From Chiloscyllium plagiosum (lineage: Eukaryota), in the NCBI RefSeq assembly GCF_004010195.1, contig NC_057719.1, positions 41,752,249 through 41,807,309 on the forward strand: a DNA stretch of 55,061 nucleotides. The letters run 5' to 3'. Positions 7,416-51,341 of this stretch are shown here, piece after piece (position 1 is the first letter of the stretch; each line of letters starts with the position of its first letter). The notes under the pieces are model-generated. The model worked only from the letters and a program-made list of their open reading frames with translations. It did not search any database and had not been told where the DNA came from. Position numbers and translations under genes: made by a program.

Positions 7416-8540
7416 GTTCCCTTGTAATATTTCAGAAATATTAAAAGTTAAGAATTTGCTTTTTTTTAAATCAAAAAGACTCAACTAAATTCCTCTTTTA
7501 TAATTAAAAAAAACTGCAATAAATCTCAGTTTACTTGGATTCAGTAGAAATAATCCCACTTATATAACGCAGTAACATAAAATAAGCAGCTGTTTAGTCA
7601 TTAAGTTTTTTTTAAAACCCACTGCAATGTACCACAACAGTTTTTCAAGAGAACTTTAATCCGAATGTTACACAGCATTAGGTTGAAGGTCATTGTGTCA
7701 AATGTGTCTTGCTGTCAACGTTAACTGTCAGGTTCTGTTAAATCAGCACTCTACACTGCACATTCAGCTTTGTTACACTAATGAATACATTGCACTGACA
7801 TGAAAGATCACACAGCCCTGACAATGAAGGCATGGGATTAAAATCAAAAATGGTATAGAACGTGGTCTTTTGAACGGCTGGCTTTCAAACATGCCAGTCG
7901 TTTGAAAAACAAGTCACACTTGAAGCTAGACTCTCATTTTTATCCATAACATTTATAAAATTCTTATCCTCAGTGATCTTTTCAACTTCCTTTTAAAATT
8001 ATATGTAGAATTGATTTGAGGCACCTTTCAGGCATTCCAGATCCCGACAATTGTATGGAACATTCCCCTCACTGGGGAACGGAAAAACAATTATGATGAC
8101 TGAAATGCGCAAGAGTACAAATGATCAAATCCTTGCCATCTACTTTACCTTTCACAATTCAGTCCTCCTTCCTTAGATGATGAGTTCAGTTTATCACCAT
8201 TAGGTAGCAAGAAATTATATATATGCATTTGGATCTCATCAATTACCCTACTCACTGTATTTAACTTTCCCCTTTCATGAACTTCTGTCTAATCTGGATA
8301 CTCAATGTTTCAGAAGCTAACTCTATAAACTAAGTGTGTAACTGATAGATTAGTTCCTATCCTTCCAGTCCAGGAGAATGCACAGCTTTCACTCCTTGAC
8401 TGAAACCTGAAAGTTTTTCATCTCCTCACCTTTGCTGGAATGGCTACAATTGCAATAGGTGCCTCAATGTTGATGAAGGCACAATGTACCCCTTGCCCAT
8501 AACCTTACCTAGATGGGCAATGGCAAGGCACCAGCATCAA

Positions 8541-9323
8541 TATTCAGCCTGGAGCCCAGTTACAAGTGGAGTTCCGCAGGAATCAGTTCTGGGTCCTCTG
8601 CTGTTTGTAATTTTTATTAATGACTTGGAAGAGGGAGTCGAAGGGTGGGTCAGTAAATTTGCAGATGATACGAAGATTGGTGGAGTTGTGGATAGTGAGG
8701 AGGGCTGTTGTTGGCTGCAAAGGGACTTAGATATGATGCAGAGCTGGGCTGAGGAGTGGCAGATGGAGTTCAACCCTGCCAAGTATGAGGTTGTCCATTT
8801 TGGAAGGACAAATAAGAATGCGGAATACAGTTCGCCTTATTTTAGGAAAGATGTGGAAGCTTTGGGGAGGGTGCAGAGAAGATTTACCAGGATGTTGCCT
8901 GGAATGGAGAATAGGTCGTACAATGATAGGTTGAGAGTGCTAGGCCTTTTCTCATTGGAACGTCGAAGGATGAGGGGTGACTTGATAGAAGTGTATAAGA
9001 TGATCAGGGGAATAGATAGAGTAGACAATCAGAAATTTTTTCCCCTGGTACAACAGAGTGTTACAAGGGGACATAAATTTAAGGTGAAGGGTGGAAGGTA
9101 TAGGGGAGATGTCAGGGGTAGGTTCTTTACCCAGAGAGTGGTGGGGGCATGGAATGCGCTGCCTGTGGGAGTGGCAGAGTCAGAATCATTGCCAAACTTT
9201 AAGTGGCAATTGGATAGGTACATGGATGGGTGCTTAAGCTAGGACAAATGTTCGGCACAACATCGTGGGCCGAAGGGCCTGTTCTGTGCTGTATTGTTCT
9301 ATGTTCTATGTTCTATGTTCTAT
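8541..9323 (+). mobile_element. CR1 LINE ORF2 3' fragment, 5'-truncated, with an internal deletion and (TTCTATG)n tail
   Basis: ORF 8484-9242 contains SGVPQESVLGPLLF, KFADDTK, WQMEFNPAK, LGLFSLERRRMRGDLIEVYK and FFTQRVVGAWNALP. Microsatellite tail at about 9293-9323. Confidence 0.93.
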
Positions 9324-10539: not shown

Positions 10540-11870
10540 ATCCCACAATCAACAGGTCAGATCTAAGCTCTGCAGTCCTGTGATGCCCAGTCATGAATGA
10601 AGATGGACAGTTAAACAACGGTCTGAAGGAGGCAGCTCCACAAATGGAACGGCCCAGCACATCAGTGCAAAAGATAAGGCTGAAACATTTGCAGCAATCT
10701 TCAGCCAGAAGTGCCCAGTGGGTGATCCATCTTGGCCTCTTCCACTGGTATGAAGAAATGGTTGGAGATTCTGGATACTGCAAAGGCAATGGGCTCTGAC
10801 GACTTTCTTACAATAATACTTGTGCTCCAGAATTTGCCACTCCCCTAGCCAAGCTCTTCCAGTACAGTTACAGCACCGGCATCTATCCAATAATGTGGCA
10901 AATTGTCTATGTATGTCCTGTACACACAAGACAGGAGAAATCCAAACCAGCTAATTGCCACCCCATCAGTCTACTCTCAGAGATCAATAAAGTGATGGAA
11001 GGTGTCATCAACAGTGCTATCAAGCAGCATCTGCTCAGCAATAACCTGGTCAGTGATGCCCAGTTTGGGTTCTGCCAGGGCCACTCAGCTCCTGACCTTA
11101 TTACAATCATGAGTCGAACATGGGCAAAAGAGCTGAATTCCAGAGGTGAGGTGAAAGTGACAGCCCTTGCCATCAAGGCTGCATTCGACCAAGTGTGGCA
11201 TCAAGGAGTCCTAACAAAACTTGAATCAATTGGTATCAGGGGGCAAACTCTTCACTGCTTGGAATCATACCTGACACATAGGAAGATGGTTAGAGTTGTT
11301 GGAAGTCAGTCATCTCAGCTCCAAGACATTTCTGCAGGACTTTCTCAGGGTAATGTCCTAGGGCCCGACCATCTACAGGTATTTCATCAATGACCTTCCC
11401 TCCATCATGATCGCAGGAGTGAGGATGTTTGTCGATGATTACACAATGTTCACCACCATTCACAGCTCCTCAGATGCTGAAGCAGTCCATTTTCAAATGC
11501 ATCAAGATCTGGACAATATCCAGGTTTGGGCTGACAAGTGGCAAGTAACATTCGTGACACACAAATGCCAGGCATGAAACTCTGCAATAGAATCAATCTA
11601 AACAGCATATCTTGACATTGAATGGTGTTACCATCACTGTCAACATCCTTGAGGAAGGAGGGTTGTTACCATTAACCAGAAATTCAACTGGACACATGAC
11701 ATAAACATCATGGCTACAAGAGCAGGCCAGAGACTAAGAACACTGTAACAAGTAACTCACACCTTGACACCCGAAAGCCTGTCCACCATCTACACAGCAC
11801 AAGTCAGGAATGAGGTGGAATACTCTCCACTTGCCTGGGTGGGTGCTGCTCCAGCAACAGTCAAGACGCT
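10540..11870 (+). mobile_element. LINE (CR1/L2 group) reverse transcriptase region, degraded
   Basis: PANCHPISLLS, QFGFCQGHS, IKAAFDQVWH, GLSQGNVLGP and MFVDD motifs, with frameshifts. Confidence 0.88.
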
Positions 11871-22212: not shown

Positions 22213-22407
22213 GTCACAACTTGCTTTGGAATGCAACACAGCAGTCTGTGTTTCTTCATTTTAAAACATCTGACAGCATCTGCCAAATAAGCTAAACAAA
22301 AGAGTTATTTATGTTCTGCATCCAGCAAAAGCAGCTAATTTAAATTTGGAAGTTATTTGTGGCTGTTCGTTGAGAGTAACAAGTCAATTTCAGCTGTACC
22401 AACAAAG
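22213..22407 (+). other. Candidate non-coding 5' UTR exon of the NRAC-like gene
   Basis: Acceptor ttttgtttgttttctag and donor AAG|gtaaag, stops in all three frames, non-repetitive sequence 1.1 kb upstream of the ATG exon. Confidence 0.45.
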
Positions 22408-23355: not shown

Positions 23356-23569
23356 GTAGGGAGAAAGAACAAAGAGAAACTCTTCAGAACCAATCCTCAG
23401 GAAATTAAATGGGTTGCGCAGAATCTAATAAGTAGATCTTAGATGACCTATGGAAGGAGTGACCTGGGTTAATTCTTAATTTTCATTTCTTTTCTCTATA
23501 TTAGAAAGTGTTTGTATTAAAAGTCCAGTTATTACCAGAAGCCTTGAATTCTTGACTTCCGAATGGAAA

Positions 23570-23585
23570 ATGGTCGATAAAACAG
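23570..23585 (+). CDS. NRAC: NRAC-like gene, putative first coding segment (MVDKT, phase 1) in exon 23505-23585
   Basis: Acceptor ttcttttctctatattag at 23504, ATG in AAAATGG context, donor CAG|gtaact. Phase 1 fits the next exon. No homology support for this segment itself. Confidence 0.5.
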
Positions 23586-24639: not shown

Positions 24640-25466
24640 NNNNNNNNNNNNNNNNNNNNNNNNNNNNNNNNNNNNNNNNNNNNNNNNNNNNNNNNNNNNN
24701 NNNNNNNNNNNNNNNNNNNNNNNNNNNNNNNNNNNNNNNNNNNNNNNNNNNNNNNNNNNNNNNNNNNNNNNNNNNNNNNNNNNNNNNNNNNNNNNNNNNN
24801 NNNNNNNNNNNNNNNNNNNNNNNNNNNNNNNNNNNNNNNNNNNNNNNNNNNNNNNNNNNNNNNNNNNNNNNNNNNNNNNNNNNNNNNNNNNNNNNNNNNN
24901 NNNNNNNNNNNNNNNNNNNNNNNNNNNNNNNNNNNNNNNNNNNNNNNNNNNNNNNNNNNNNNNNNNNNNNNNNNNNNNNNNNNNNNNNNNNNNNNNNNNN
25001 NNNNNNNNNNNNNNNNNNNNNNNNNNNNNNNNNNNNNNNNNNNNNNNNNNNNNNNNNNNNNNNNNNNNNNNNNNNNNNNNNNNNNNNNNNNNNNNNNNNN
25101 NNNNNNNNNNNNNNNNNNNNNNNNNNNNNNNNNNNNNNNNNNNNNNNNNNNNNNNNNNNNNNNNNNNNNNNNNNNNNNNNNNNNNNNNNNNNNNNNNNNN
25201 NNNNNNNNNNNNNNNNNNNNNNNNNNNNNNNNNNNNNNNNNNNNNNNNNNNNNNNNNNNNNNNNNNNNNNNNNNNNNNNNNNNNNNNNNNNNNNNNNNNN
25301 NNNNNNNNNNNNNNNNNNNNNNNNNNNNNNNNNNNNNNNNNNNNNNNNNNNNNNNNNNNNNNNNNNNNNNNNNNNNNNNNNNNNNNNNNNNNNNNNNNNN
25401 NNNNNNNNNNNNNNNNNNNNNNNNNNNNNNNNNNNNNNNNNNNNNNNNNNNNNNNNNNNNNNNNNN
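24640..25466. other. Assembly gap (N run)
   Basis: Run of N bases. Confidence 1.
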
Positions 25467-27373: not shown

Positions 27374-27534
27374 ATTCAAAACAAACAGATAACTCAGCTG
27401 TCTCCCAGGATTCTACTGCTGATCGACTGCTCAATCTTTCAAATAAGGTTTTGCCACAGAGATTTGAAAACTCTCCAGATGTCAGAAGGCTTAAAACAAA
27501 CACATTACCTTCACAAATGTGTCATGCACAGGAG
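27374..27534 (+). CDS. NRAC: NRAC-like gene, coding exon (phase 1 to 0)
   Basis: Acceptor ctttttctag and donor GAG|gtagga bound 161 open nt: (D)SKQTDNSAVSQDSTADRLLNLSNKVLPQRFENSPDVRRLKTNTLPSQMCHAQE. The phases bridge the flanking exons. Confidence 0.65.
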
Positions 27535-28000
27535 GTAGGATATCTTAGCATGTCAATGTGTGTTTCAGTGGGACATTTGTGTCTTTCTGAACTTATCATT
27601 AAGGAAGATGAACTAGTCTTACAGACTAGGTTAGCTGTCACTTATATTTATACCCATCATTAAATAAAAATCAGACAAGATTCAATAGCGCTTAGCTTCT
27701 TGATCAGATCTTTCCAGTTAGTCGAGAGTTCAGTTAAAGGTCAATATTGACCTTGTTTTCCTTGAAAATTACTTTTTTGATGAAAATTTAACAATATGGT
27801 ACAGACGACATGAAGTCTGAGAGAAAAGAAATCTAGGAATCCAGTGGAAGGATATCTGAATTGGAGTTAATTATCTACAGCCATTTGATTAAAAACTCTA
27901 TATTTTTAAAATAAATCATATCTACCACAAATAGAGAATTAGAGATTTTAAATATTTTGGTGAATACAGAGATAGTTTAATAATATTTTTAAACCACCAG

Positions 28001-28139
28001 GTGATTGCACTTAAATGTCCAGCATCTATACTGAGGAGGAAATCCAAAATGACACAAAATGCAGATGGTTATGTTTCTCACAGAGCAAGAGCTGAACGAA
28101 GAGTTCGATTTCAAGAATTGGATGAAATAATTTTTGACA
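28001..28139 (+). CDS. NRAC: NRAC-like gene, conserved exon with SILK-type and RVxF motifs (phase 0 to 1)
   Basis: Acceptor ccaccag, donor A|gtatgt. VIALKCPASILRRKSKMTQNADGYVSHRARAERRVRFQELDEIIFD aligns with recalled human C14orf180 KCPPSILKR...RRVWFREP. Confidence 0.85.
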
Positions 28140-28199
28140 GTATGTTTGACCATCTAATATTATATAAAGCAAATGGATAGCAACATTAAGTTTTGTTTA

Positions 28200-28885
28200 T
28201 AGAGAGCTGCACAGGACTGGGATGATATTTTTGCAGGGAGATTTGATAGTGCTGTTGGGGTGAGATTCAAGTACCTTTACAGGGGGATGGGAACCTGAGG
28301 GACAACCCAAATTGAGGGAAGTAAAGTAGGTAACAGTAAATAGAAAAGCTGCTGGGGGGACTATGGAACAGGAGGAAAAAAGCATCAATTATGCTTCAAA
28401 AACAGAATTATGTCAAAAAGACAAAGTTAAGGGCACTCTACCTAAAGGCATACACCATTTTCAGCAAGATAGGTGATCAAAAGACACAAATAGAAGTAAA
28501 TTGTTCTGATTTAATTGCCATGACAGAAACTTAGCTGCATCACAATCAGCATTGGAACTGAATATTTGATATTTAGGAATGACAGACAATAAGGTAAAAG
28601 AGATGGAATTGCCCTCATAATATAAAATAGGATCAGTACATTAGTAAGGGAGAACCTCAGATCAGTGTGAGAAATCTGTGTGAGTGGAGCTCAAGGAGCA
28701 AGGTGCAGCAGACATTGCTTCCAGTTATTTATAGACCACCAAATACAGATGGGGGGGGGGATGCAGAGGAGGGGGGGGGGGAGGGGGGGAGGGAAGAGAG
28801 GCATTAATCAGGAAATGAGAGAAGCTTGTAGCATAGGAAATGCAACAAATATGAGTAACCTCAATCTGAATGTAGATTGCACAAG
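28200..28885 (+). mobile_element. Degraded CR1 ORF1/ORF2 junction (endonuclease start) containing a G-rich tract
   Basis: Remnants of DLIAMTET and YRPP-like segments; G runs at 28750-28796. Confidence 0.6.
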
Positions 28886-28898
28886 CCAATCGAGCAGT

Positions 28899-29085
28899 AA
28901 AGATAAAGTCCCCATAGTCCCACTTCCTCATTACAGAGAGATAACTGGTGGTATTTATACCTGAGGCTCATCATGCCTCAGATGGGGGTAAGGTTGAGGA
29001 AGTGGAATCTTTGTAGTAACTTCACTTGAAGTGGGAACTGAACCCACAATGTTGGCACTATTCTGGAGCACCAACTGAGCTAACC
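28899..29085 (-). mobile_element. Short tRNA-derived SINE (third family)
   Basis: The minus strand starts ggttagctcagttgg (A box) and continues to gggttcagttccc (B box). Confidence 0.55.
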
Positions 29086-29436
29086 TTTTGGGATGTGGAA
29101 CTACAATATTGTAGAATATTACATCATGTTTGAAATTGAGATAGTCACATTTGAATAAGGGACATTATAAGGCATTTAACACAAATTGATTGAACTGAAT
29201 TGGAATAATACATTAAAAAACATTACTGTACATAGGCAATGGGCCGTCTTTAAAAAAGAGGGTTGTGAATCTTTGGAATTATGTACTGCAGAGGGCTGTG
29301 AAAACTTAGCCTTTGAGTATATTTAAAGTAAATGTTGATAAATTTCTGATTGCCATTGGTATAAAATGTTGCGTAGATAAAGGCATTGAAGTGTTTGTGA
29401 AAGTGAATTAGATGGTGAAACAGGTTCAATGGACTC

Positions 29437-30345
29437 TTAGAATTCCTACACTGTGGAAGTAGGCCCTTCAGCCCAACAAGTCCACACTGATCCTCCCACC
29501 CAAACCCATTCTTCAAATGCACCTAACCTGAACACTATGGGCAAATCAGCATGGTCAATTCACCGCACCATCTTTGGATTGTGGGAGGAAACCCACACAG
29601 ATACAGGGAGAATATGCAAGCTCCACATAGACAGTTGTATGTACTTAATTTTACCCTGCAGTTTGTTCCATGCCAATATTTTATTTGCACACTGGGTTTT
29701 GTGGTCATCTTAGAATAGGCAGAAAAAATCAATCAGACTTCAATATGCGCAGAGGTAGTGAATTATTGACTTTGCCAGAAGGTCTTCATGCGACATGTTG
29801 ATGATAATCATGACATGAAGGGATTTGTGGATAGTGCAGATAAGTTACTGACTGTAAATGGTCATCAGTTGTAGAATAGGCTTGAGCAATTTATCGGTTG
29901 CTCCTGCTCCTCCGTTCTTATGGAGGCCAACCTTGTTCATCATATTTCACTTCTTAATTTCAGAATATTAGTTAATATCGTGGGCGGCACGGTGGTTAGC
30001 ACTGCTGCTTCACGGTGCCAGAGACCCGGGTTCAATTCCCGACTCAGGCGACTGACTGTGTGGAGTTTGCACATTCTCCCCGTGTCTGCGTGGGTTTCCT
30101 CCCACATTCCAAAGATGTGCAGGTCAGGTGAATTGGCCATGCTAAATTGCCCATAGTGTTAGGTAAAAAGGGGTACATGTAGGGGTATGGGTGGGTTGCA
30201 GGTCGGTGTGGACTTGTTGGGCCGAAGGGCCTGTTTCCACACTGTAAGTAATCTAATCTTAAAAAAAACAGTTACTCAAGGCTGGAATTGAACCCAGGTC
30301 CCTAACACTGGGAGGTAGTAGTGCTAACCACTGAGCCACCATACC
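29437..30345 (-). mobile_element. HE1 V-SINE split in two (29437-29636 and 30269-30345) by an inserted block
   Basis: The tail/V-domain part ends ...ctccacatagacagtt; the head resumes acagttactcaaggctggaattgaaccc. Confidence 0.8.
29981..30258 (+). mobile_element. HE1 V-SINE, well preserved
   Basis: gggcggcacggtggttagcactgctg...gggttcaattccc...tgtggagtttgcacattctccccg...taatctaatc. Confidence 0.93.
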
Positions 30346-31249
30346 AACTCATAGCCTACTCCTCTGTTCCTATATTCCTATGTAACAAAGGGCAAGCCTC
30401 AATAAGCTGAACAATTATTTTCAACTCCAACTTCTCTTGTATAATGCTATTTCAGGCTTAGAATTTCAGAATTTAATTTGAGTTAATTTTATGATCAGGA
30501 AAAGGATTATTCATTGAGAATAGAGCACTCAATAAGTTATGTTCCAAACATTTCCTAAATGTTAACTTTTTAGATAAATGTTTATTTGAGCAGACCTATT
30601 GCTGCTGTTCTAAATTTCATGAACAAAATAGGTTACTCTTCCGTCTTCTAGCCATGCACATATGTATGCAAAGCAAATTCCACCTACTAACATAAAAACA
30701 GAATGTTGGAATATTTATAGTAGTCTAACAATGTGTCACATCAAAAACATCTTTCTTTTTCAAATGCTGGTCAATGTGTTCACTTCCCAAACTTTTATTT
30801 TTGTTCAAAATGTCCCACATTCTCAGTTCTGTTATTTTGCCACCTCTATTGATATCAAATTGTTTACATCCAGTTTAATATGTGATGAAAAGGTTGATTT
30901 ATTGCACCTGACAAACTTACATTTCGAAAACTTCTCATTGTCATGAGATAGAGAGTGAATTTATTCAGTGTCTAACAAAAATAAGATTCTAGGCTCACAT
31001 TAGTCAGGAATCAACATGTGAGGTATATTACCTGAATATCATTATCTTTCTGATTGGGTTTTCCCAGCTGGCTTTAGGACCACATAAATTTCTGTCAGCA
31101 GAATCCTTATATTTTTTTTCAAATGTCTTGTAAAACTTTCAGCAAACCTGATCTCATGTTACTGGTTTAGTTTCCCCACCTGGACAATGTTGCGTGACCA
31201 CTGAGTGGTTCATTTTCTCCCCTTCTCAGTTTTGTTGTCATAATCAGTG

Positions 31250-34200
31250 TGGGGAGCATTTGATGCTACAGGAGAGGCAGTTACAGGAGAGGCAGCTCAG
31301 CAGCTACAGGAGATGATTGAGCTTGTGGGCCTGTGGGCCTTCAATTTGGTCAGCGGGGAAATGATAACCACTCCTCTAGCCTGGGGATTCTGCTGCCAGG
31401 AGGCAACTTCACCATCTCTGAAGTTAAGGAGGTCGTGGGCAGGGGCCTCCTCATAGCAGACATTATGTACAGAAACGCTCCCCTCAGACTAATTAATGCG
31501 TATGCCCCAGTGTGAAAGAGTTAGCTTCCACTGTTGCTGGTTACATCCAGGTCAGTCATTCTGACCAGAGGCTTCAATTGTATCATTGATGCAGAATGAC
31601 GATCCAGTGGGGAGGACAAAAAAACTGGATGCCACGTCCAGATTCCTGATTGAAACGGTCAAAGATGCCAAGTTGCATGACATCTTCAACACCCCTGCAG
31701 ACAGATCGCAGCATAGATACACCTGGTCATGGCCAGTCAGGTCCATCTGCTCAAGGAGAGATTTCCAGTTTGTGTCCTGAGCGTTCCCGCTCAGATCCAA
31801 CAACGTCAATCTGGTGTTCTTCTCTGGCCACTGCCTCCTGCTGGCTGACTGCCACCTACAGGCACACCAGCCGGCGGTCAAGGGAACGTGGAAGCTGAGT
31901 GTGGAGTTGTTAGCCCCAGAAAACATTGAGGAGCTGCAAAGGTATTGCACAGGTTGGAGAACCATGAAGCTCCTCTCTGAGTCTCCAGTGGATTGGTGAG
32001 AAACAGTCAAAGTGAACATCAAGAAGTATTTTATTCTCAAAGCTGTGCAGAAGGTGAGAGAGAGGTGGGAAAAACTGTCAAATATTCAGAAGGGTATGCA
32101 GAACCTACTCCTGCTGCAGATGATTGAGGGTCAATATCACGAAGCACCTCAGGAGATGAAAGGCCAGCAAGCCTCGTTCTTTGCCTTGGAGACCTCCAAG
32201 ATAATCTTCTGGCCAAGGATCCACTCCATGGAGTAGGACGAGAAATGCTCACATTTCTTCTTCCAGAAGGTGCAAAAGGAGGGCTCCATGCTCAGCAGCC
32301 TGCAGGAAGAAGATGGCTCAGTAACATCATCTCAGTCTGACATCATGAGGATCAGCAAATCCTTCTATGCCAATCTGTATGACACGAAGCCAACCGACAG
32401 CGTGGCCTCCCAGTCGTTCCTGTCCTCTATCACGGAGGTCTTAGATGATAGCACGCGGGAGAGGCTGGACCAGCCATTATCTCTGGATGAGCTGACCAAG
32501 GCCCTCGAGTCCTTTGAAAACTCTGGGAAGTGATGACTTATCAGTTGAGTTCTATTTTGCTCTATGGGACTTGATCAGCCAGACCTTCTGGAGGTGTATG
32601 TCAGCTTGCTTTGGGCAAGTACCATGAGTGAATCCATGAGGAAAGGCATCATCATGCTCATCTACATACAGAAGAGAGAGAGGGAGGAAATTAGCAATTG
32701 GCGACCAATCTCACTGCTAAAGATGGGCTACAAAATCGGGTCAGGTCTGCTCTGGGATCAGTGATTCACCATGACCAAACCTGTGCTGTTCCGGGCAGGA
32801 AGATCGCTGAGAGTCTCGCACTCCTCAGGGATACGATCACCTACATACAGGACAGGGGGTAGACACCTGCTGGACCAGGACAAAGCCTTTGACAGGATTT
32901 CGTACACGTATATGAGAGATGATCTCTCCAAAATGGGCTCTGGGGAATTTCTGCAATTGGATCCGACTGCTCTGCACCAACATTGTTAGTGCAGTCTCAA
33001 TCAATGGGTGGGAATCAGAAAGCTTTCCAATCAGACCAGGAGTCAGGCAAGGCTGCCCTCTCTCTCCTGCCTAGTGTGTGCTGCTGTTTAGAGCCATTTG
33101 CTGAGTTCATCAGGAAGGATGTGAGCCTGACAGGGGTGACTATTCCTGGTAGCGGGGGCCAGGAACTGGTTAAGGCCTCCCTGTACATGGACGATGTTGC
33201 CATTTTCTGCTCGGATCCACTGTCAGTGCACAGATTCATGTGCACCTGCAACCAGTTTGAACAGGCCTCGGGGCCAAGGTAAATCTTTGAAAACTGGACT
33301 GACAATCCTCTATCCCCTTCACCGTCAGGACTGACCACCTGAATATGCTGGGTATTTGGTTCAGAGGGGTTGGGGCATGCGCCAAGTCTTGGGAGGAGCA
33401 TGTCACTGAGGTGGGACAGAAATTGGGTATGTGGAGCACCGGTTGCTCTCCAAGGCGGGTAAAACTTAGTCATCAGGTGTGAGATGCTCTCAGTGTTGTT
33501 ATACATGGCACAGGTCTGGCCTATTCCCTGAACCTGCGCCGCCACAGTCACCCAGGCCATCTTTCACTTCATGTGGAGATCGAAGATGGACTGTATCCGA
33601 TGGGACACCATGTACAAAGACCTGTACAAAGAGGGAGAAACACATCCAATGTGACCCTCACTCTGATGGCCACCTTTGTGTGTGGCTGCATCAAACTGTG
33701 AGTGGATCCCTGGTACGCAAACGCTAAGTGTCACTACATACTGAGTTCTGCCTGTCCCTGCTGTTGTGAAGGATGGGCCAGGCCTTGCTGCCATGGAATG
33801 CTTCAAGTAGTTGGACCATTTCATATCACCTGTCCATCATGGAGAAATTTGTGAAGGAAAATACCTTTGACCACAAATCCATCAGGAAGTGGTCAGCACG
33901 TAGTCTTTGAGACCCTTGGGGAAAAGGAGACGACAGATCCTGTCGAGCGGTTCCCTGCACAGACTGTCTGGATGCTTCATTGCCCGAACTCTCAAACAAG
34001 CACAAGGACATCGTTTGGCTGATGGTGAGAAGGGCTCTGCCAGAGAGATCCTTTATACATGCCCGGACTCTCTGTACCACCGCACGCTGCCCTCGAAGTG
34101 GCTGTGGAGGGGGCGAGACTGGTGCACACCTCCTTCGGGAATGTGCATCTGCAAATGAAGTCTGGAGAGTAATGTATTGGACGCCGTGCTCTATGGTCAG

Positions 34201-34656
34201 TTTCTTGAGACTGACACTGAGTTGAACATCAACTGTGCCTGGAGGACCATCAACTCGGTGATAGACGCTCTTTGTTCTGCCCAAACTTTGCTGGTCTTCC
34301 AGTAGAAGGAGTTGACCCCAACTGAGTGTTGCAACCTGGCACATTCCAACATCCAGGTCTATGTGCTGAGGGACACTCTAAAGCTTGGAACAACTGCTAT
34401 CAAGGTGCAGTGGGGAAAGACTATGTGTAAGGTCCTTCTGCTGAAGAATAACTGGGGCTCCATTCAGTAATTGGACCCCACAGATGCCTCAGCTAAATGC
34501 CAAGAGGTTGACTGTAAATATAGAGAATGGTGAACATCAAAGACTTAATTTGTTTTCTGTAAGTAAAGAGAGTATAGATCTGAACGGCTTCATTAACTGT
34601 AAATGTCCCAAAGATTTCTTTTTATGAATAAGCTATATTTTTGCAATTTAAAAAAA
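31250..34656 (+). mobile_element. Tx1-clade LINE ORF2 (endonuclease, RT, C-terminal Cys/His region), 5'-truncated and degraded, with A tail
   Basis: LRLINAYAP, WRPISLL, DQDKAFDRISY, GVRQGCPLS, LYMDDV and CPRSGCGGGETGAHLLREC motifs, many frameshifts, A-rich end near 34650. Confidence 0.9.
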
Positions 34657-35069
34657 CCAATTTGATACAGTTTGTGAGGTTTGACTGTATCATGAATTGC
34701 TGGTTCTAATATTTTGACTTTGTTATAAAGAAGGTTTTTCTACTTAAGCTAAATGAAAGTAAGTTAAAATGTAAGTAAATAGTAGATGAAAGGAAATTGA
34801 ACTTCTCTGCAACTGAAGTACTTGAAATAATGCTGCTGGAGTTAATGAGCTATTTTGGAGCTTTTCTGAGCTAAGAGTGGCCAGTCTCTGGTAGATGTAA
34901 TCATTTGTGATTGTGACATTGATAAATTATTCCTTTTCATTCTTCTCAATGAACAGTGGCCTTTGAAATGGATAACCACACCATTCTCCTCTAATGGTTC
35001 TCCTTTATTATCCTGTTGAGTCGGACTATCCCTGTCTGGTTGCATTCCTAGCAATGAATTATCTTCTCT

Positions 35070-35345
35070 TCCAGCTCCCTCACCATTGCCTCTTGTGTCC
35101 CTTAAGGATCCATCTTGGAGCCCTCCCGTTTATCACTTACATGCTGCCCTTTGACAACATCATCCAGGAACACAAGGTCAGGCTCCACATTTACACATGA
35201 TGACTGCCAGCTCTACTTCACCACCATCTCTTTCAATCCATCAATTGAATTGGATTTGTTTGATATCCAGAATGGATGATAAAATATTCCTTCAACTAAA
35301 TGTTAGGATCTGGAATAGTGTGTGTAGTCTTGGTCTCCTTAACTC
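35070..35345 (+). mobile_element. L2-type LINE RT fragment
   Basis: GSILGA..FITYMLP and a degenerate H.Y.DD.QLY remnant. Confidence 0.6.
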
Positions 35346-35399
35346 AGAAATGACGGTATTACCTACAGGGAGAACAACAAGAGTTTTGAAGAATAATAA

Positions 35400-35750
35400 G
35401 TGATTTCTTTGAAACCTACAAAATATATAAAAAGACAGACAGTGTAGTTGTAGATAAGATCATTCTCCCCAGTGAGGAGTCAAGGGTACCATTTAAAAAA
35501 TAAAAAGAATAGCACAAAGAGAAATTCCTTTACTCAGTGGCTTGTCAAGTTTTTGAATTCTCTACTCAAAAGGGTGCCACCAGCTGAGTCTTTGAGTATG
35601 TTTAAAGCAGAGATTGATTTCTGATCATAAAGAGTTATGCAAATAATGTGAGTTAAAAGCACTGAAGTGTTTGATCAGCCATGGTAGTATTAAGTGGTTG
35701 TTCAGACTTAATGGGCTGTTTGGCTCACTCCTGTTCCTATTTTCCTATGA
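35400..35750 (+). mobile_element. CR1 3' end fragment
   Basis: Similar to the 3' ends of the CR1 copies near 14000-14400 and 41200-41570. Confidence 0.55.
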
Positions 35751-36614
35751 AAGCCAAGGCCATTGCCTAAAGTCTTTATGCATAATTACAATTTAATTTG
35801 GATTTAAAGAAAATCAGTATTTCATCCTTCTCATCCACTCTGCATATTTCTAACAAGCGGTTTGAATTCCATTATCTCAAAAGCAATAGCAAATTAAGGA
35901 GGAGGGTCAAAGACAGTTCAAATCCGTTTTCACTTACCCAACTTCAAACTTCTTTCAGAGAACATCTGAAACATCAAATTCAGAAAGGTTCTATAATCGG
36001 TAACAATGCAGCTAGTGTCTAAAAGGTTAGACTGAGAAATGGTATGGAAGATGCATCTGCACAACTGGGATGCTCACAATGAATATTAACATGGTAGAAA
36101 TTGTAGTAGGACAATGACCAAGGTTTAGACTATCATAAAGGCAGGATGCTGTACTTGATTGATGATAAGCAATTGGACATATCCATGGTTCATCAATCAT
36201 GATACAGTCTCAACTTCCAGAAGCAATGGACGGATTTACAAGGGAAGCAGCACTTGCTGAAATGTGTGGAGCTTAATGACAAATGACTTGTTCTAGTGTT
36301 TTGACTTTTGTAAGAAAGAAGACTTTTCTAATTTCAGATTAAACTAACTAATGTAAAACTTAAATGTGAAGGTGAAACTCAATTTATCCTAGCCACTGAT
36401 TCCATCCCTCTCCTTGGTCACTCTTTGTGGCTGAATTAAATCATTCACAATCTTCATGTCCTATTTGTCACTGAAATTAATTTTCGAACTCTTATTCTTA
36501 ATCACCAAGGCTACCTACTTCTACCTCCTTAAAACCACGAGCTTCCATCCTTTCCTCAGCTCATCTGCTTCAGCTTTGTCCTTGTTCCAATAAGCTCAGT
36601 CATAGTGTAATACA

Positions 36615-37170
36615 AATCAAAGGATTGTGGATCCTGAAAATCTGAAAAAAAAAACAAATTGCAGGAGAATTCAGCAGTTTAGCAGGATCTATGGAGAGAA
36701 AGTAGTGTTAATGTTTTGAATCTACTGCCCCTTCCTCAGAACTGATAGCAACTCAGAAAAGGTCATATATATATATACTGTAGACAGAGTGTGGGAAGTA
36801 GAGGAGATTGCAGACTGGGTGTCCCCTTTGAGGAACATCTACAGTCTGTCCACAAAAATGACCCTGACCTTCTAGTCGCCTACCACTTTAATCACACCAC
36901 TGTGCTCCCTGGTCAACATTTTTACCTCATGCCTGCTGCAGTGCTCCAGTCAAGCACAGTCCAATCTGGAAGAACAGTGTCTCATTTTCTGCTTGGAGAA
37001 CCTTCAGCCTTCAGGACTTATTGAGTTCAATAATATTAGAACCTTAACACCTTCTTCTATGTCTGTTAGATATCCCCACACTCCAGGCCCTGTCATGACA
37101 TGGCCTAGTTTCAATAGAGCCAACCTATTTTCACCTACTAATGGTCCACATTACCAGCTTGTTTTTCTTG
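36615..37170 (+). mobile_element. Penelope-like fragment with an inverted terminal segment
   Basis: ORF 36791 reads CRLGVPFEEHLQSVHKNDPDLLVAYHFN, same family as 5735-6180. Inverted terminus at 36615-36790. Confidence 0.7.
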
Positions 37171-39383
37171 CAAGCATATTATCATCCATCTGTATTCAGC
37201 AATCCTGAATTTATCACTACTGATGTAAATCATGGTCACAATCCATTGAATAAAAACAATTCGAGCAGGAAGAAATTCCAAAATATTTAGCCTCAACATC
37301 TTGTAATCTGGATCATTAACCAGAATTTCAATTCCAATTAATAGCAGAATTTTAGCATGATTCATCTAAGTCAGCCAGTTTAAAAAAGAGAATTTAAATT
37401 AAAGACAAAATACAAATCAAAATGCACAGCAAGATCTCAATCAAAATTGGATATTTTTCTTACCATTTGAAATTAGAGAAATGTTAAAGTTTTTAGTAAA
37501 TTCCTGCTAGTAATAAAAATACTTCATTGTAACCACTCTTGTAACACTAATCAAATTCACAGTAATGAGTATTTTTTGGTGTTTTAGTTGATGACTTAAG
37601 ATGATTGTTTGTTTGTGCTTCTGAAATGTCATTACTTATGATGGGAATCCCAGTTGTACTGATGCATATTACACATGCCATTTTAAAGTGTCTTCTTCTC
37701 AAAGTTACTTTCTAAAGTTTCAGGCATGAGCTATTTGTTGCTGATCATAGATCCTTTCTGAATCTCATGTTTCAAATGCTGCCTTCTTTCAGTATGAAGC
37801 TGTTGAGTGGCAAAAATAGATCTGAACTTTCTTCATCCTCCTTGTTAAATTACTTCTGTGCTATTGAGATGATGGAATTCTAACCTCTTGTTAGCAATAT
37901 GCATAGGGAGTAGTGACAATGAAATATTGTTTGTTTTAAGCAACAAACTAAAATGCTAATAGTGCATAGCATGCAATAAGAGCATTTCTGAAAGGAGTGG
38001 CTTGAATGGAAGCTCATTAGAATTATGTTTAAATATGAGGTAACCTTCCAGCATGTAATTTGAATAACTTTTAAAGAGATATAATATTCTGCTGACTATT
38101 GATTTTCATTTGGAATTCACTACTCCACAGGGGTATTTTCCTTCAAACTAATCTATTTTGTGCTCTCAGGGGTAACATTACTCTTTGTTTGTCATTTTAT
38201 TTCCTGGTTCTGCCTTTTGCTTTCTTTCTCTTTTAAAGGCCCTCTGGTGCTACCACTCCAGATGCGTGAATCTGTCTTTCTAGTGCCTGGTCAACACAAC
38301 ACCTTTCTGCAATTAATTTTTGTCTGTAACTGTGCTCATGGCTCTGCATATCATTTTAAAAAGCAACTTGGTTTTATTATGGAAGCCAGTCCAGATGGCC
38401 TTGAGCTAATATCCTAGCCATAATCTCACAGTGTCTGCACTAAATTCAATGTCATTATTCATGCAAAATAAACTGCTGAGCATAAAATTTATTTTATCTT
38501 GCTATGTGAAGCCTCCATACTTCTCCCATAAGTTGTATTAGCTGCTGTAATTTCCATAGTCTGAATCTTTTGCGAAATAAATTCTTCTATGCTTCCTGTT
38601 GGTTTATATTTGTGTACTAATACATTTTAAGCACAGAATCATTTTATGAGGTATTTTAATTTCCTTCTCAATGTTTTAAATGCTATAGTTAAACAATATT
38701 GTCAGAGTGAACGATTGACTCCTAAAAAAAAAGTTGCTGTCATTAGTTATTTGTAGAACACTTCTTGGACCTCAGTTAGTTTCTTGCTAGCAAAACCCTG
38801 ATGTAAGTTCTGCTAAAGTTCAGAAAAGAGTAGTAGATGGAATGTCTAAGGTAACCAGTTGATTCCCCTAAATATAATCTACTCAATAAGGTATGGGGTG
38901 AAAGATTTAACTACATTGTTATTTACAGGATGTTGCTACAAGTATGCAAATAAAGTTAAATTCTGTAGAGCTAAAGATATGTTTTAAGAATGTATGAAAT
39001 AGGTGTTGTATAATGGCATATATTCCAGAACAGACAGAGCTGTAATTTTAAGACAGTTACCTGATATCACAACATAAGACATTTTGGATTAAAAGTACCC
39101 ACCTCAGCTTCAATCAGCCTATCTGTGTAATGGAGTCTATGTAATCAATCAGTTAAGGTACAGTAAAATCAGAAAGCATAGAACCAGCGTATATGTTTAA
39201 GTCTATGATATTATAATTTTGTAAGTAGGTAATATTATAAATAAACTTCAAGATATCCAACTCAACAGAACTTGACCTTCTGTGGAATATGTTGCTTGGA
39301 TTAACATGAATAGGAGATTACCAACAACATTATAGTGGTAGTACTAAAAGTTACCTATAGAAAATGAATCTAGGGAACTAATA

Positions 39384-39452
39384 GGCGGGTCGGTGTGGAC
39401 TTGTTGGGCCGAAGGGCCTGTTTCCACACTGTAAGTAATCTAATCTAATCTA
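39384..39452 (+). mobile_element. 69-bp HE1/HER1 3' tail insertion
   Basis: Matches the HE1 3' end with (TAATC)n; flanked by a perfect 55-bp duplication. Confidence 0.9.
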
Positions 39453-40097
39453 ATTATAGTGGTAGTACTAAAAGTTACCTATAGAAAATGAATCTAGGGA
39501 ACTAATAATGGAGGATAAAGTGATGGAAGATGAATTGAAAACATATTTTGCATCAGGCTTCACTAAAGAGCAAACAATTCGCTCCTTAGAAATAGCTATG
39601 AATCAGGGATTGAAATGGAGGAAGGCACTGAAGAAAATTACAATTATCAAAGAAGTAATATTGCATAAATTATTGGAATTGTGAAATGACACATCCTCAG
39701 GTCCTGTTAAATTTTATCCTAGGGTCTTAAAAGAAGTTGTCAGTGAAATAGCTAATGCATTAGTTCTTATTTTCTAAAACCTATTAGATTTGAGGATGCT
39801 TACTTTGGATTGGAAAATAGCCAATATAACTCCTCCATTCAAAAAGGAAGAAGGCAGGAATCAGGAAACTCCAGGCCCATTAGCTTAACATTGGTCATAG
39901 GGAGAATGTTTGAAGCTATTATTAAAGACGGTATTGGAGGGCACTTGGATAACCATAAAGTAATCAGGCAGAGCCAACATTGTTTTATCCAAGGGAAATC
40001 ATATTGAACTAATTTATTAGCTTTCTTTGAAGAAGTAACTTGTGCTGTAGATCAAAGGGAACCGGTGGATGTATTGCACTTAGATTCCCAGAAGGTA

Positions 40098-40429
40098 GCG
40101 AGATTTGAGAAGGTTTGTAGCTCAGGTTGTGGTTCTGGATGTAGATTTGCTCACTGAGCTGGAAGGTTCATTTCCAGATGTTTCGTCACCCTGCTAGGTA
40201 ACATCTTCAGTGGGCCTCCAAGCAAAACACTGTTGATAATTCCTGCTTTCTATTTATATGTTTGGGTTTCTTTGGGTTGCTGATGTCATTTCCTGCAGTG
40301 ACAACATTTCCTGTGATTATGTCATTTTCTGTTCTTCTTCTCAGGGGGTGGTAGATGGGGTCTAACTTGATGTGTTTGTTGATAGAGTTCTTGTTGAAAT
40401 GCCATGTTTCCAGGAATTCTTCTGCATTT
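40098..40429 (-). mobile_element. Penelope 3' fragment inserted in CR1, 14-bp TSD
   Basis: TSD attcccagaaggta at 40084-40097 and 40430-40443; hammerhead core on the minus strand at 40180-40210. Confidence 0.88.
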
Positions 40430-41584
40430 ATTCCCAGAAGGTATTTGATAAAATATCACATCAAAGGTTATTGCAAAAAATAAAAGCTCATGGTGTGGGG
40501 ATTAACATATTGGCTGGCACAGAATATTGGCTAGCTAACAGGAAGCAGAGAGTTGGAATAAATGGGTCTTTTTCAGGCTGGCAGGATGTCATGAGTGTCA
40601 ACCGCACGGGAGTTGGTGCTGGGGTCTCAACTCTTTATAATTAATATAACTGATTTGTATGAAAAGATTGAAGGATAGTAGCTAAATTTTGGAATGACAC
40701 AAAGATAGGCTGGAAAGTGAGTTGTGAAGAGGACATTAAGGACCCAGGAAGGAATATGGATAAATCATATGAGTGAGCAAAGACATGGCAAATGAAGGAC
40801 AATGTGGAAAAATATGAATTGACCATTTTGGCGGAAAGAATAAAAAGGAAGCATATGATCTAAATGGTGAGAGGATTCAGAGAGATCTGGATGTCTTAGT
40901 GCATGAATCAAAGGTCAGTATGTAGGTATGGCAAGAAATCAGGAAAGCTAATGCTATAATAGGAATTGAATGCAAAAGTAAGGAAGTCATGCTTCAGTTA
41001 TACAGGTGAGATTCATCTGGAGTATTGTGTGTAATACTAGTCACAGTACTCATAGAAGGATGTTACTGCATTGGAAACAGCTCAGAGAAGGTTTATTAGA
41101 CCAATATCTGGAATGAGTTTATTGTCTTTTGAGGAAAGGCAAGAGAGGCTAAATCTGTATCCTCTGGAGTTTTAAAAGAGTCAGGGGTGACTTAATTGAA
41201 ACATATCGGATCCTAAAGGGACTTGACTGAGTGGATGTTGAAAGCATATTTCTCCTTGTGGGAGAATCTAGAATTAGAGGTCACAGTATAAAAATAAGAG
41301 GTCATCCATTTAAAACTGATGAGGAACTCTCTGTCAGAGAGTTTTGAGCCTTTGAAATTCCCTTCCTCAAAATGTAGTGGTTGCAAAATCTTTAAATATT
41401 TTTAAGGCACTGGTGGATAGATTCTTCATTACCAAGGAGTTGAAAGATTACCGGGGGTATGCAGGAATGTTAACTTGAGGTTAAAATCAGATCAGTCATG
41501 ATCTTACTGAATGGCAGACCAGACTCAAAGGTCCAAGAGGTCTACTCTTGTTCCATGTTCATATATCAACCATTGCTTTTATTA

Positions 41585-41685
41585 AATTACAACAGTGGCT
41601 ACAAGTTTAAAATAGTTCATTGGCTGCAAAGTGCATGAAAACCCTGAGACTGTGAAAGGTGCTATATAAATAAAAGCCACTTCTA
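41585..41685 (+). mobile_element. DeuSINE/L2-type 3' tail remnant (related reverse copies near 50285 and 52555)
   Basis: ttacaacagtggctac...cattggctgcaaag...tgtgaaaggtgctatataaat; family name from memory. Confidence 0.5.
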
Positions 41686-42194
41686 TTATCCACAAAGAGT
41701 AGCAAAGCTTCTCAATTCTCCTGGACAGCATCACCTAAAGCACATTTAAAACTGATAGGAATAACCAATGAGTAAATAAGTTGGTGATGATTTGTCTACT
41801 TAGAACATAACTGACACCGAATAAACTGATTAAACATTAAGTAAAAGGATTGCAATGCATTGGAAAGAAGATACAAATTAATTTATTTTGCATTTTGTTG
41901 CATTACAAAGATGTTATGAAGGAATTCCATTCCTCAGAGCTGATACAATTTTTAATTCCACGTGTATGTGTACAATTCATTGTGCTGCTGTATTATTCTT
42001 CATGGCTCAGCATTGGTGTTACTTTTAATGGAAATGTGTGAAACATATTAAATAACTACATTGAAATTGTGTGCAATTGACCAATGTTATCAATGCAGCT
42101 TTCTACAGCAGCAATAATTTTGCCACGACACAGTTATAAGAGAGAGAGGAAAGCACCTGAGGTGAAGTCAGACTGCCTGTCAGGTTTCCACTTA

Positions 42195-42500
42195 AGATTA
42201 GATTCCTACAGTGTGGAAACAGGCCCTTTGCCCAACAAGTCCTCACCAATCCTCCGAAGAGTAACCCACCCAGACCCATTTCCCTTTGACTAATGAACCT
42301 AACACTATGGACAAATTAGGAAGGCCAATTCACCTGATCTGCACATCTTTGGATTGTGAGAGGAAACCCACGCAGACATTGGTAGAATGTGCAAACTCCA
42401 CACAGACAGTCATCCGAGGTTGGACTCAAACCCGGGTCCCTGATGCTGTGAGACAGCAGTGCTAACTACTGAGCCACTGTACCACCCCACGAGCCACCAT
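42195..42500 (-). mobile_element. HE1 V-SINE
   Basis: Reverse HE1 pattern from agattagattcctacagtgtgg to ctactgagccactg. Confidence 0.9.
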
Positions 42501-42764
42501 GCAGCCCCACGAGGCATTGTGCCACACCCCCTAACTTTAAAACCAGAAGAGAAAAATAGAATTAATACTATTAAGTTGAATATTCTGAACTCATAAGCCT
42601 GGTTAGAAATCAATGGTTGAATTCAGTCAGTCTCCAGTTCTCCATCACCTGCTAGCAAAGTGTTGGCTTAGTCATATGTAAACTGACATGATAATGCATA
42701 TTCTAATCATGAATACCTTTGTCAAGATGCTTATTTTTCTGACATTTGAAGATTACTGTAATTT

Positions 42765-43725
42765 TTATCATTTGTATAAATGATTTGGATGCGAGCATAA
42801 GAGGTACAGTTAGTAAGTTTGCAGATGACACCAAAATTGGAGATGTAGTGGACAGTGAAGAAGGTTGCCTCAGATTACAACAGGATCTGGACCAGATGGG
42901 CCAATGGGCTGAGAAGTGTCAGATGGAGTTTAATTCGGATAAATGCGAGGTGCTGCATTTTGGGAAAGCAAATCTTAACAGGACTTATACACTTAATGAT
43001 AAGCTCCTAGGGAGTGGTGCTGAACAAAGAGACCTTGGAGTGCAGGTTCATAGCTCCTTGAAAGTGAAGTCGCAGGTAGATAGGTTAGTGAAGAAGGCAT
43101 TTGGTATGCTTTCCTTTATTGGTCAGAGTATTGAGTACAGGAGTTGGCAGGTCATGTTGCAATTGTACAGGACATTGGTTAGGCCACTGTTGGGATATTA
43201 TGTGCAATTCTGCCCTCCTTCTTATCGGAAAGAAGTTGTAAAACTTGTAAGGATTCAGTAAAGATTTACAAGGATGTTGCCAGGGTTGGAGGATTTGAGC
43301 TATAGAGAGACGCTGAATAGGCTGGGGCTGTTTTCCCTGGAGTTTCGGAGGCTGAGGGGTTAACTTATAGAGATTTACAAAATTATGAGGGGCATGGATA
43401 GGATAAATAGACAAAGTCTTTTCCCTGGAATGGGGGAGTCCAGAACTAGAGGGCGTTGGTTTAGTGTGAGAGGGGAAAGATATAAAAGAAACCTAAGGGG
43501 CAACTTTTTCACGCAGAGGATGGTACGTGTATGGAATGAGCTGCCAGAGGAAGTGGTGGAGGCTGGTACAATTGCAACATTTAAAAACCATTTGGATGGG
43601 TATATGAATAGGAAGAGTTTGGAGGGATATGGGCTGGGTGCTGGCGGGTGGGACCAGATTGGGTTGGGATGGATCGGTTGGACTGACGGGTCTGTTTCCA
43701 TGCTGTACATCTCTATGACTCTATA
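42765..43725 (+). mobile_element. CR1 (HER1-like) LINE 3' ~1 kb
   Basis: ORFs 42746-43261 (KFADDTKIG, QMEFNSDKCEVLHFG) and 43385-43738 (FFTQRMVRVWNELP); ctctatgactctat tail. Confidence 0.93.
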
Positions 43726-43774
43726 TGAAATGATGTAACATTAAATTTTTGTGTTCTATTTGTATTTTTGCCAG

Positions 43775-43977
43775 CTAACAGCTGTAATTCCCATTTGCCG
43801 GCATTGCTTCGTAAATTATTGATCGTCATTTTGCTGAGTCTGATGATGATCATGTTGCTGTATTGTAGCGAGACTGCAACAGTCATCTACGAACAACTTC
43901 AGTCAAAACTCAACAGCGTTTTCCTGGAAATGAAGAATCTAACTTTCAGTTGGTTGACTTGGAGTAGGAAAAATTAA
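43775..43977 (+). CDS. NRAC: NRAC-like gene, terminal coding exon with transmembrane helix (phase 1 to stop)
   Basis: Acceptor tttgtatttttgccag. NSCNSHLPALLRKLLIVILLSLMMIMLLYCSETATVIYEQLQSKLNSVFLEMKNLTFSWLTWSRKN* aligns with recalled human NRAC [20 protein letters not shown]...[23 protein letters not shown]. Confidence 0.8.
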
Positions 43978-49659: not shown

Positions 49660-49968
49660 ATGGCTGGCCAGGTAGAACAGAAAACGGAAAGGACTTTCAG
49701 GAGATTTACCTGCAGAGGTGTTGACCTGGATCAGTTCCTTGCTATGTCCCATGAGCAGCTGATGCAGTTGCATTGTGCCTGTCAGTGGAGGCTTGTAAAC
49801 AGAGGCCTACAATGAAAGCAACAGTCCGTTCTGAATAGGCTGCACAAAGCCAAACAGGAAGCTCCACCAATGGACATACCACAGGTTGTCAGGACTCACC
49901 TTTGGGATATGGTTAATCTCTCAGAGATGGTAACTGTGTACAATGGCAAAACCTTCAAGCAACTTGAA
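49660..49968 (+). pseudogene. RPS15: Processed pseudogene of 40S ribosomal protein S15 (uS19), 3'-truncated
   Basis: Intronless [105 protein letters not shown] at 49813-49815 and a 4-codon deletion relative to recalled RPS15. Confidence 0.93.
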
Positions 49969-51341
49969 GGACCTTCAACCATGACCGCCTCTCCCAGAAT
50001 GTAATTCTAGTAGAGGCAGCAGGTTCAGTTCTGCCACCACCCAGCCTAATTATATGGTCCTCCTCCCTCCAAAATCTCCATCAGCAAGAGCAGAAGATAC
50101 TGAATGAATATCTGCTGACATATACTTTCTGGGCCACCTTGCAAATGTTTCTAATCATTATGAAATTAAGTTTAAACGGAATAAATGTTTTTTTAATAAC
50201 TTCAAATGCAAATTTTACCTTCATTCTACTGCTGAGTAGAATCCTGTTTATCAATGCAAATCCTTTTAAAGGTAAAAAGAATCAACGAGTTTCCATTTAT
50301 ATTATGCCTTTCACAATAGCTGAAGAATGTTAACAGCCAATGAAGTATTTTTAATGCAGAGACTAAAGAGGGCAAGCGTCAGGTTAATGGAACATAGCCA
50401 TGTTTTCTGGCACCAATCACCTGAATGCCACGGTAACAGCACATGCTCACCACCGATTGATTCCAAATGGGCACACACAGGAACAATGTTAAGACAATTT
50501 TTACAAATTACAAAAACGATAATCCTGATAATTTTAACACTGACACTAGCAACATGCAGATTAGCATAAATATCAATCATAAATATATTTAAACTTTCTC
50601 ACCATGCATTTTTTCTGCTTTTGTGTTGGTGAAACTGCCCCAATGCATCATAAAGTTGTTTCAAATTCTTGCTTGGAGATTACAGAAACATCAAAGAAGA
50701 AAAAGGTTCTTGGCTCATTTTACAGGGTGGATGGATTTTCACATTTTGTCTAAATTCACTTATTTATTTAGGTATGCACCAAAATAGTGCATATAATACG
50801 CCAATCTAACGTTGTTCCACATTGTACAGTAAATGTACACTTAGAATTCAAATGCTTAAGTAAAGTAATGTGTTACAACTATATCCTAACACTACTACTT
50901 GTGAGGAAGAATATGGAAGACCAATAGGTTTTTAATCAAAGCATCACACCAACAGGAAATTTATTCTACAAGTTAAATTTAAAAAATGTGTGCTTCAGGA
51001 AAGTAGAGACTGTGTTCACATCATCTTGTCCATGCAAACATGCAGATAAATAGAACATCAATCAAAGGAATGAACTATCTCAGATGCTGGTCAAAATAGG
51101 AATGATGTCAAACAGGATAAAACATGTTCAAAACACATTGCACTGATAAGTGAAATTTGGTTTGTACTGTGTGAGAGATTGTGCTTCTGATGATCCCACA
51201 TTATTCTTTAGTTTTAGGATCTTAAACTTTGTACAACATCCAATTGGGCTCTTGTTTAGTGACTAGAATAAAATAAATCAACTCATAATTGTTTATTTTG
51301 AATTGGATTTTTGATTTCTATATTTGATTGATTTTAAATAT

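Follow-up and report, generated by a model that had tools for sequence, protein, structure and literature searches.

Inhibitor-2, KNL1 and NIPP1 are regulators of protein phosphatase 1 (PP1) that combine RVxF, SILK and PhiPhi motifs, and PPP1R3A (GM) is a membrane-anchored, glycogen-targeting PP1 subunit with an RVxF motif and a C-terminal transmembrane (TM) anchor. Consortin (CNST) is also listed as a PP1 regulator, under the name PPP1R64. Mouse NRAC shows adipose- and heart-enriched expression and a plasma-membrane location (PMC3459823), is described as a two-pass protein whose N-terminus is intracellular, and binds CD36 through its TM helix (PMC12436663). Immunoprecipitation of endogenous NRAC from mouse fat gave 13 partners, among which the available text names CD36, caveolin-1 and cavin-1, not PP1 (PMC12436663).

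PP1 is not mentioned in the accessible parts of three NRAC papers (PMC12436663, PMC12873920, PMC3459823). Our literature search returned no paper linking C14orf180 to PP1 or PPP1CA and did not document consortin/CNST (C1orf71) as a PP1 RVxF regulator or as PPP1R64; queries for consortin with protein phosphatase 1 and for C14orf180 with interactome gave just unrelated omics papers, such as PMC7465812 as far as its accessible part goes. Neither NRAC nor CNST occurs in the supplements of two PP1 interactome studies in cell lines, from which nothing is concluded, and viral contigs scanned for PP1 motifs gave no match. The original prediction for the locus described here, namely that a motif pair tethers PP1 to a membrane, stated that no demonstration was known for NRAC; this is correct for targeted work, but a binary interaction is on record, as the supplements of Burke et al. 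2023 hold the pair Q8N912 (NRAC)-P62140 (PPP1CB) from HuRI, a high-throughput yeast two-hybrid screen, and place it in the high-confidence model set with pDockQ >0.5 (PMC9935395). In the available HuRI table, NRAC has at least 22 rows, the best listed pDockQ being 0.66 with a 323-aa partner, ENSG00000186298 (PMC9935395). With at least 22 HuRI partners, NRAC may be a sticky protein. We take ENSG00000186298 to be PPP1CC (PP1-gamma), with which the 323-aa length agrees.

A carpet-shark NRAC gene and its kinship with consortin

The window, that is, the whole 55,061-nucleotide stretch of Chiloscyllium plagiosum DNA analysed here, is vertebrate DNA rich in retroelements and contains the following features of an NRAC gene.

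1667-1772, + strand: upstream remnant exon (tblastn with P0014 residues 151-186, E 8.6e-6; AG/GT flanks intact)
22213-22243, + strand: candidate micro-exon with a weak donor, reading SQLALEC in its ancestral frame where other sharks have SHLALEC
23505-23585, + strand: exon with the likely start ATG (23570), joined to 27374 as loose contig ends in three runs
23570-23585, + strand: coding part of the first coding exon, from mapping of relatives' proteins
27374-27534, + strand: coding exon for the disordered N-terminal region, residues 6-59
28001-28139, + strand: coding exon, residues 60-106, with the whole predicted PP1-docking module; AG acceptor, GT donor
28025-28036, + strand: SILR (residues 68-71), a SILK-type motif within the conserved stretch CPxSIL[RK][RK]
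28097-28111, + strand: RVxF motif RRVRF, residues 92-96 (RVRF, 28100-28111)
28118-28138, + strand: predicted PhiPhi-type motif LDEIIFD, residues 99-105, from model contacts
30652-30695, + strand: candidate alternative last exon with AG acceptor, in frame and ending in a stop, which would yield a TM-less form of 119 aa
43775-43977, + strand: last coding exon with the TM helix (about residues 116-136), an amphipathic helix (141-171) and the stop (43975-43977)

Four coding exons, 23570-23585, 27374-27534, 28001-28139 and 43775-43977, encode a 172-aa protein that differs from NRAC of Chiloscyllium punctatum (P0001) at six positions. The intron 27535-28000 (GT..AG) is removed exactly in contigs of three of the four runs, with 27534 joined to 28001, and the loose ends of the same contigs match exon 23505-23585 upstream and exon 43775 downstream in three runs. 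The fourth run (single-cell X9) holds no reads at the locus and hence provides no test of splicing. As the runs carry no tissue label and are only presumed to be RNA, the evidence consists of the GT..AG joints in the contigs of three runs, which show the NRAC gene to be transcribed and spliced as modelled. Two hydrophobic open reading frames, 38103-38417 and 41010-41099, were considered as the last exon and ruled out, since transcripts join 28139 to 43775; the N-terminus of a 326-aa Hemiscyllium model was rejected as well, as it maps onto repeat DNA. The intron that separates the first coding exon from the second contains an assembly gap (24640-25466, 827 N).

The candidate exon 30652-30695 is absent from the transcript contigs of the three informative runs. 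Its tail is identical to that of Rhincodon isoform X3 (P0006) at 8 of 12 residues (E 5e-5), and comparable tails occur in the annotated isoforms X3 of Rhincodon and X5 of Stegostoma. The resulting 119-aa form would hold all PP1 motifs without the TM helix and could act as a soluble competitor.

No gene neighbouring NRAC was recognised in the window. Elsewhere, a broken copy of ribosomal protein S15 that has no introns (49660-49998, + strand) matches RPS15 chains at E 8e-16 and has an in-frame stop at 49813-49815 and a 4-codon gap, as in a likely processed pseudogene. Decayed pieces of non-LTR retrotransposons are found with RVT_1 matches at 8400-9242 and 10800-11393, and another at about 31600-34400, with zf-RVT at 33911-34222, lies inside an NRAC intron. 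The end of the window (54440-55061) carries two near-identical copies of about 200 bases, from about 54475 and about 54872, as judged by eye.

By sequence, the window gene is a carpet-shark member of the NRAC (C14orf180, mouse A530016L24Rik, DUF4658) family and a shortened consortin paralogue rather than a CNST orthologue. The closest proteins to the motif exon are NRAC of Chiloscyllium punctatum (P0001) and a Rhincodon protein, and among Pfam families the exon matches DUF4658 (E 9e-5) and Consortin_C (E 0.002). P0001 scores 27.3 bits against DUF4658 (PF15555), marginally above the cut-off of 27, and 23.4 bits against Consortin_C (PF15281), below the cut-off of 30, the motif-to-TM region giving E 6e-5; as a CNST orthologue P0001 thus falls short, with Consortin_C below cut-off and no Consortin_N match. 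Relatives in the profile searches are mostly named NRAC and spread across vertebrates, two teleost proteins being labelled Consortin by their source. The long NRACs of ray-finned fish and some sharks exceed the cut-off of Consortin_N (PF22883; P0021 E 3e-20, P0014 E 6e-7), several long fish and shark forms also lie above the Consortin_C cut-off, and fish forms have TPR matches. Because long NRAC forms carry both Consortin_N and Consortin_C matches, NRAC would be a paralogue of consortin at both ends, a kinship judged from Pfam profile matches. Atlas look-ups, which serve as leads only, pointed to an NRAC cluster (0.88) and a Consortin_C cluster (0.76), and a search of PDB chains with the family profile and with the motif exon gave no match at E 10.

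The original prediction had likened the protein to consortin and PPP1R3A. With consortin the likeness goes beyond analogy to homology, as both share a Consortin_C-like region from motifs to TM helix, whereas the shark protein has 172 aa and no Consortin_N. With PPP1R3A it is an analogy only, for the families are unrelated and no CBM21 glycogen-binding domain was found by Pfam in shark NRAC.

Topology and the lost N-terminal region

In AlphaFold2 predictions from a 23-sequence alignment, the N-terminal 110 residues are disordered and helices span residues 112-136 and 141-171; pLDDT is mostly below 50 in the N-terminus and about 47-54 over residues 61-110, and the motifs are predicted to have no secondary structure. 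The N-terminus had been described as looking low-complexity, which did not hold: it reaches 3.8 bits over residues 1-60 and is instead predicted to be disordered. The TM helix has its best 19-residue Kyte-Doolittle average, 2.55, at residues 116-134 and is preceded by R118-K119, while the later part of P0001 reaches just 0.36. The last exon thus encodes the single hydrophobic helix that was expected, but the amphipathic helix 141-171 that follows it had been overlooked. The second helix is the point at which shark and bony-vertebrate NRACs part, as its best 19-mer is at most 0.36 in five shark proteins, too weakly hydrophobic for a TM segment, versus 0.87-1.44 in eight bony vertebrates. Although the shark protein, with one strongly hydrophobic helix and a second, amphipathic one, lacks the two TM segments of the mouse description, this does not exclude orthology, because the mouse two-TM assignment is itself a prediction.

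In other respects, shark NRAC resembles NRAC/C14orf180 closely, being short, with a disordered N-terminus, a CPxSIL[RK] motif and an RVxF motif, a TM helix that ends in LY and a C-terminal helix that ends in W-x-W. No N-terminal hydrophobic signal is present. Because R118-K119 precede the TM helix and the mouse N-terminus is intracellular, we infer that the N-terminus of shark NRAC is cytosolic.

Unlike NRAC/C14orf180, the shark locus holds frameshifted remnants of a longer N-terminus upstream. The remnant exon 1667-1772 is homologous to part of the Consortin_N/TPR-side region of long-form shark NRAC and shares its frame with the micro-exon 22213-22243, not with the motif exons. In exon 23505-23585, the ancestral frame shifts after KVFV and runs into a stop (TGA, 23553-23555). 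The shifted-frame reading is found in eight model proteins of Rhincodon and Stegostoma, and nine proteins of other sharks keep the ancestral frame (Cetorhinus, Carcharodon, Scyliorhinus, Mustelus, Heptranchias, Heterodontus and one more). The frameshift, apparently common to carpet sharks, uncouples the consortin-like N-terminal remnants from the motif exons. These sequence patterns point to a single frameshift in the carpet-shark line and to an independent shortening among tetrapods; in each of the several lineages that lost the N-terminal Consortin_N/TPR region, the module of motifs and TM helix is the part that stayed. An ATG at 22231, within the micro-exon, could begin a 197-aa form in the shifted frame.

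The motif pair and the modelled complex with PP1

The SILR and RVRF motifs lie where they had been placed, in one frame of exon 28001-28139 and 21 residues apart, and this observation is confirmed. The six-frame translation of the window contains eight matches to [GS]IL[RK] and 150 to a loose RVxF, of which only the SILR/RVRF pair puts a SILK motif 5-60 aa ahead of an RVxF motif. Shuffling the 172-aa protein 100,000 times produced such an ordered pair in 82 cases. The SILK motif also overlaps a PKA-type site, RRKS (28034-28045, + strand, residues 71-74), which could switch PP1 binding; a site of the form [RK][RK]x[ST] after the SILK motif is present as RRKS74 in shark and in 49/120 listed homologues.

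Homologues were gathered by a full-library profile search (17 representatives) and a second profile that returned 212 proteins, of which the 120 listed were counted. These come from sharks, coelacanth, ray-finned fish, amphibians, reptiles, birds and echidna, therian mammals lying outside the counts; they form clusters of kin, with many birds among them, and do not count as separate events, and the motifs had served as search seeds. When 23 proteins were aligned without anchoring, the columns free of any variation were P66, S68, I69, L70, R92, V94, R95, F96, E98, E101, Y135 and L151, ten of the twelve being within the two motifs and their flanks. In the alignment of the 120 listed homologues, which was cut at the motif and so leans towards it, I69, L70, V94, R95 and F96 are kept in 120/120 and S68 in 119/120, the serine being lost in P0103, and the most frequent residue at linker positions 75-78 occurs in just 10-21. 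As patterns among the listed homologues, [GS]IL[RK] is found in 119/120 and both V-R-F and [RK]x?VRF in all 120; the pair is present in 119/120 by the relaxed and 117/120 by the strict pattern, at a spacing of 15-22 residues. The strict misses are two Anolis proteins with RVxF-compatible KTVRF and KSVRF and one parrot protein with PILR. In addition, K72/R73 and R88-R93 are well kept, and a hydrophobic pair lies 4-8 residues C-terminal of the RVxF phenylalanine in 106/120. The view that SILR and RVRF are the most conserved residues therefore holds, the motif anchors being invariant while the linker drifts, and the orthologue alignment proposed as a check finds the motifs kept from shark to echidna in 119/120 listed homologues.

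For human NRAC, the available model in the supplement of PMC12436663 gives S46, I47 and K49, then V69, W70 and F71, followed by V79 and Y81, residues being read at those positions, with 48, 67 and 68 left out. Since S46, I47, K49, V69, W70 and F71 match, both motifs appear to persist in human NRAC, the x of RVxF being R in shark and W in human. Conservation of SILR and RRVRF thus extends from sharks as far as a monotreme, and human NRAC has residues to match.

The complex was modelled with residues 58-112 of P0001 and a PP1-beta-like catalytic subunit, P0036, which comes from a metagenome contig and stands in for shark PP1 (best PDB match 1s70_A, PP1-beta, E 2e-221). The ipSAE was 0.91 in three of three runs and 0.00 in the best of three controls; the runs had at least 81% of contacts in common, with a partner pLDDT of 58-59. 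The score mark is reached by 51/78 solved versus 2/108 mismatched microbial pairs and by 71/105 solved versus 2/126 unrelated eukaryotic pairs, a calibration that contains neither peptides nor disordered chains. Because many complexes of this kind have been solved, the pass shows likeness to them and not that NRAC binds PP1.

In the model, NRAC residues 65-72 touch PP1 residues 52-58, 85 and 115-118; V94 and F96 touch 168, 241-242, 260 and 288-291, within an interface span of residues 92-97; and residues 99-103 and 105 belong to an interface that takes in PP1 73-77 and 287-296. No named contacts lie at the PP1 active site. By comparison with PP1 structures, we take the contacted surfaces to be the SILK, RVxF and PhiPhi pockets. 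Complex prediction had been suggested as a check, and it places both motifs in the expected pockets (0.91 versus 0.00); moreover, it predicts a third, PhiPhi-type contact after RVxF, at about residues 101-105, that the original prediction had overlooked. Such a contact fits the statement that about 90% of solved PP1 holoenzymes use RVxF plus PhiPhi[xF] (PMC9813921). RRP1B is similarly a disordered chain with several short motifs, and in the model shark NRAC makes contacts in the same three PP1 regions (PMC9813921). The two differ in that shark NRAC is membrane-anchored and has SILK before RVxF, whereas the SILK site of RRP1B is C-terminal to RVxF (PMC9813921). The motifs match the PP1 docking consensuses as claimed, but their "usual order" is not a fixed one.

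NRAC as a candidate membrane anchor for PP1

Since the best-conserved residues are the predicted PP1-gripping motifs, NRAC likely tethers PP1 to a membrane, and the proposal of a membrane PP1 tether is supported by deep conservation, the complex model, the human two-hybrid record and the intracellular N-terminus in mouse. Most likely, NRAC docks the PP1 catalytic subunit (PP1c) via SILK, RVxF and PhiPhi motifs, some 20 residues from the membrane and beside TM-bound partners. Mechanistically, the disordered N-terminal region would wrap PP1c by three consecutive motifs, SILK (68-71), RVxF (92-96) and PhiPhi (about 101-105); the TM helix, about 20 residues after RVxF, would keep PP1 near the inner leaflet, and PP1 may thereby be placed near partners of the TM helix, which in mouse fat are CD36 and caveolin-1. 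A bolder scheme, which we hold only tentatively and think rather doubtful as a whole, makes NRAC the PP1-targeting subunit of the CD36-caveolin-1 complex: the TM helix would hold CD36, the SILK-RVxF-PhiPhi module, unchanged since sharks, would park PP1 at the inner leaflet so as to keep a caveolar trafficking protein dephosphorylated, and fatty-acid-triggered ubiquitination of NRAC would remove the phosphatase and commit CD36 to clathrin uptake, while the TM-less form could compete for PP1.

The docking itself would also be compatible with a different role, in which NRAC binds PP1 as a substrate, or as a local inhibitor or buffer, so that PP1 would act on the phosphorylation, trafficking or ubiquitination of NRAC itself and would not be directed to third proteins. 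Any protein with SILK, RVxF and PhiPhi motifs fits this equally, NRAC has no remaining folded substrate-binding domain, and RRKS74 with its counterparts in 49/120 listed homologues offers a PKA-type site; however, that site is missing in 71/120, the modelled contacts fall in three docking regions as in targeting subunits, and the binding of CD36 by the mouse TM helix (PMC12436663) provides a third-party neighbourhood for PP1. We consider the substrate or buffer role rather unlikely. Less probable still is that the basic strings are conserved for acidic-lipid binding, as an arginine-based sorting signal or as an adaptor site, PP1 binding being incidental. Both motifs do sit within basic runs (K72/R73 and R88-R93), and consortin is a trafficking receptor, but what stays invariant is the set of hydrophobic anchors I69, L70, V94 and F96 (120/120 listed), which PP1 pockets read and a charge patch does not need, and this view would require two independent PP1 motifs, the third contact and the two-hybrid record to coincide by chance. 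In favour of an incidental role, PP1 goes unnamed among the mouse-fat partners in the available text (PMC12436663).

The broken ancestral frame in exon 23505-23585 and the weak donor of the micro-exon raise the further idea that the gene is decaying in the shark lineage and that the motifs are inherited relics. Against it, the downstream frame of 172 codons is intact and spliced in three runs, the models of Chiloscyllium, Stegostoma and Rhincodon keep the frame with invariant motifs, and the NRACs of amphibians, reptiles, birds and a monotreme are short too; decay therefore seems very improbable to us.

Tethering of PP1 remains the preferred reading. The PP1 module of NRAC is real and conserved; it is probably functional, and NRAC is likely an overlooked membrane PP1-targeting subunit. 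This would be an overlooked connection and not a new kind of system, because the gene and the classes of motif were known before, as was a high-throughput record of binding; what the present analysis adds is the splice evidence, the counts, a controlled three-motif complex model, the HuRI link, the frameshift of carpet sharks and a candidate form that lacks the TM helix. Across jawed vertebrates, the best-kept residues of NRAC are its predicted cytosolic PP1 motifs, which links NRAC and consortin in a small family of PP1 anchors at the membrane and makes it possible to ask, by a two-residue test, whether the step missing from the control of CD36 traffic by NRAC in fat and heart is a local dephosphorylation.
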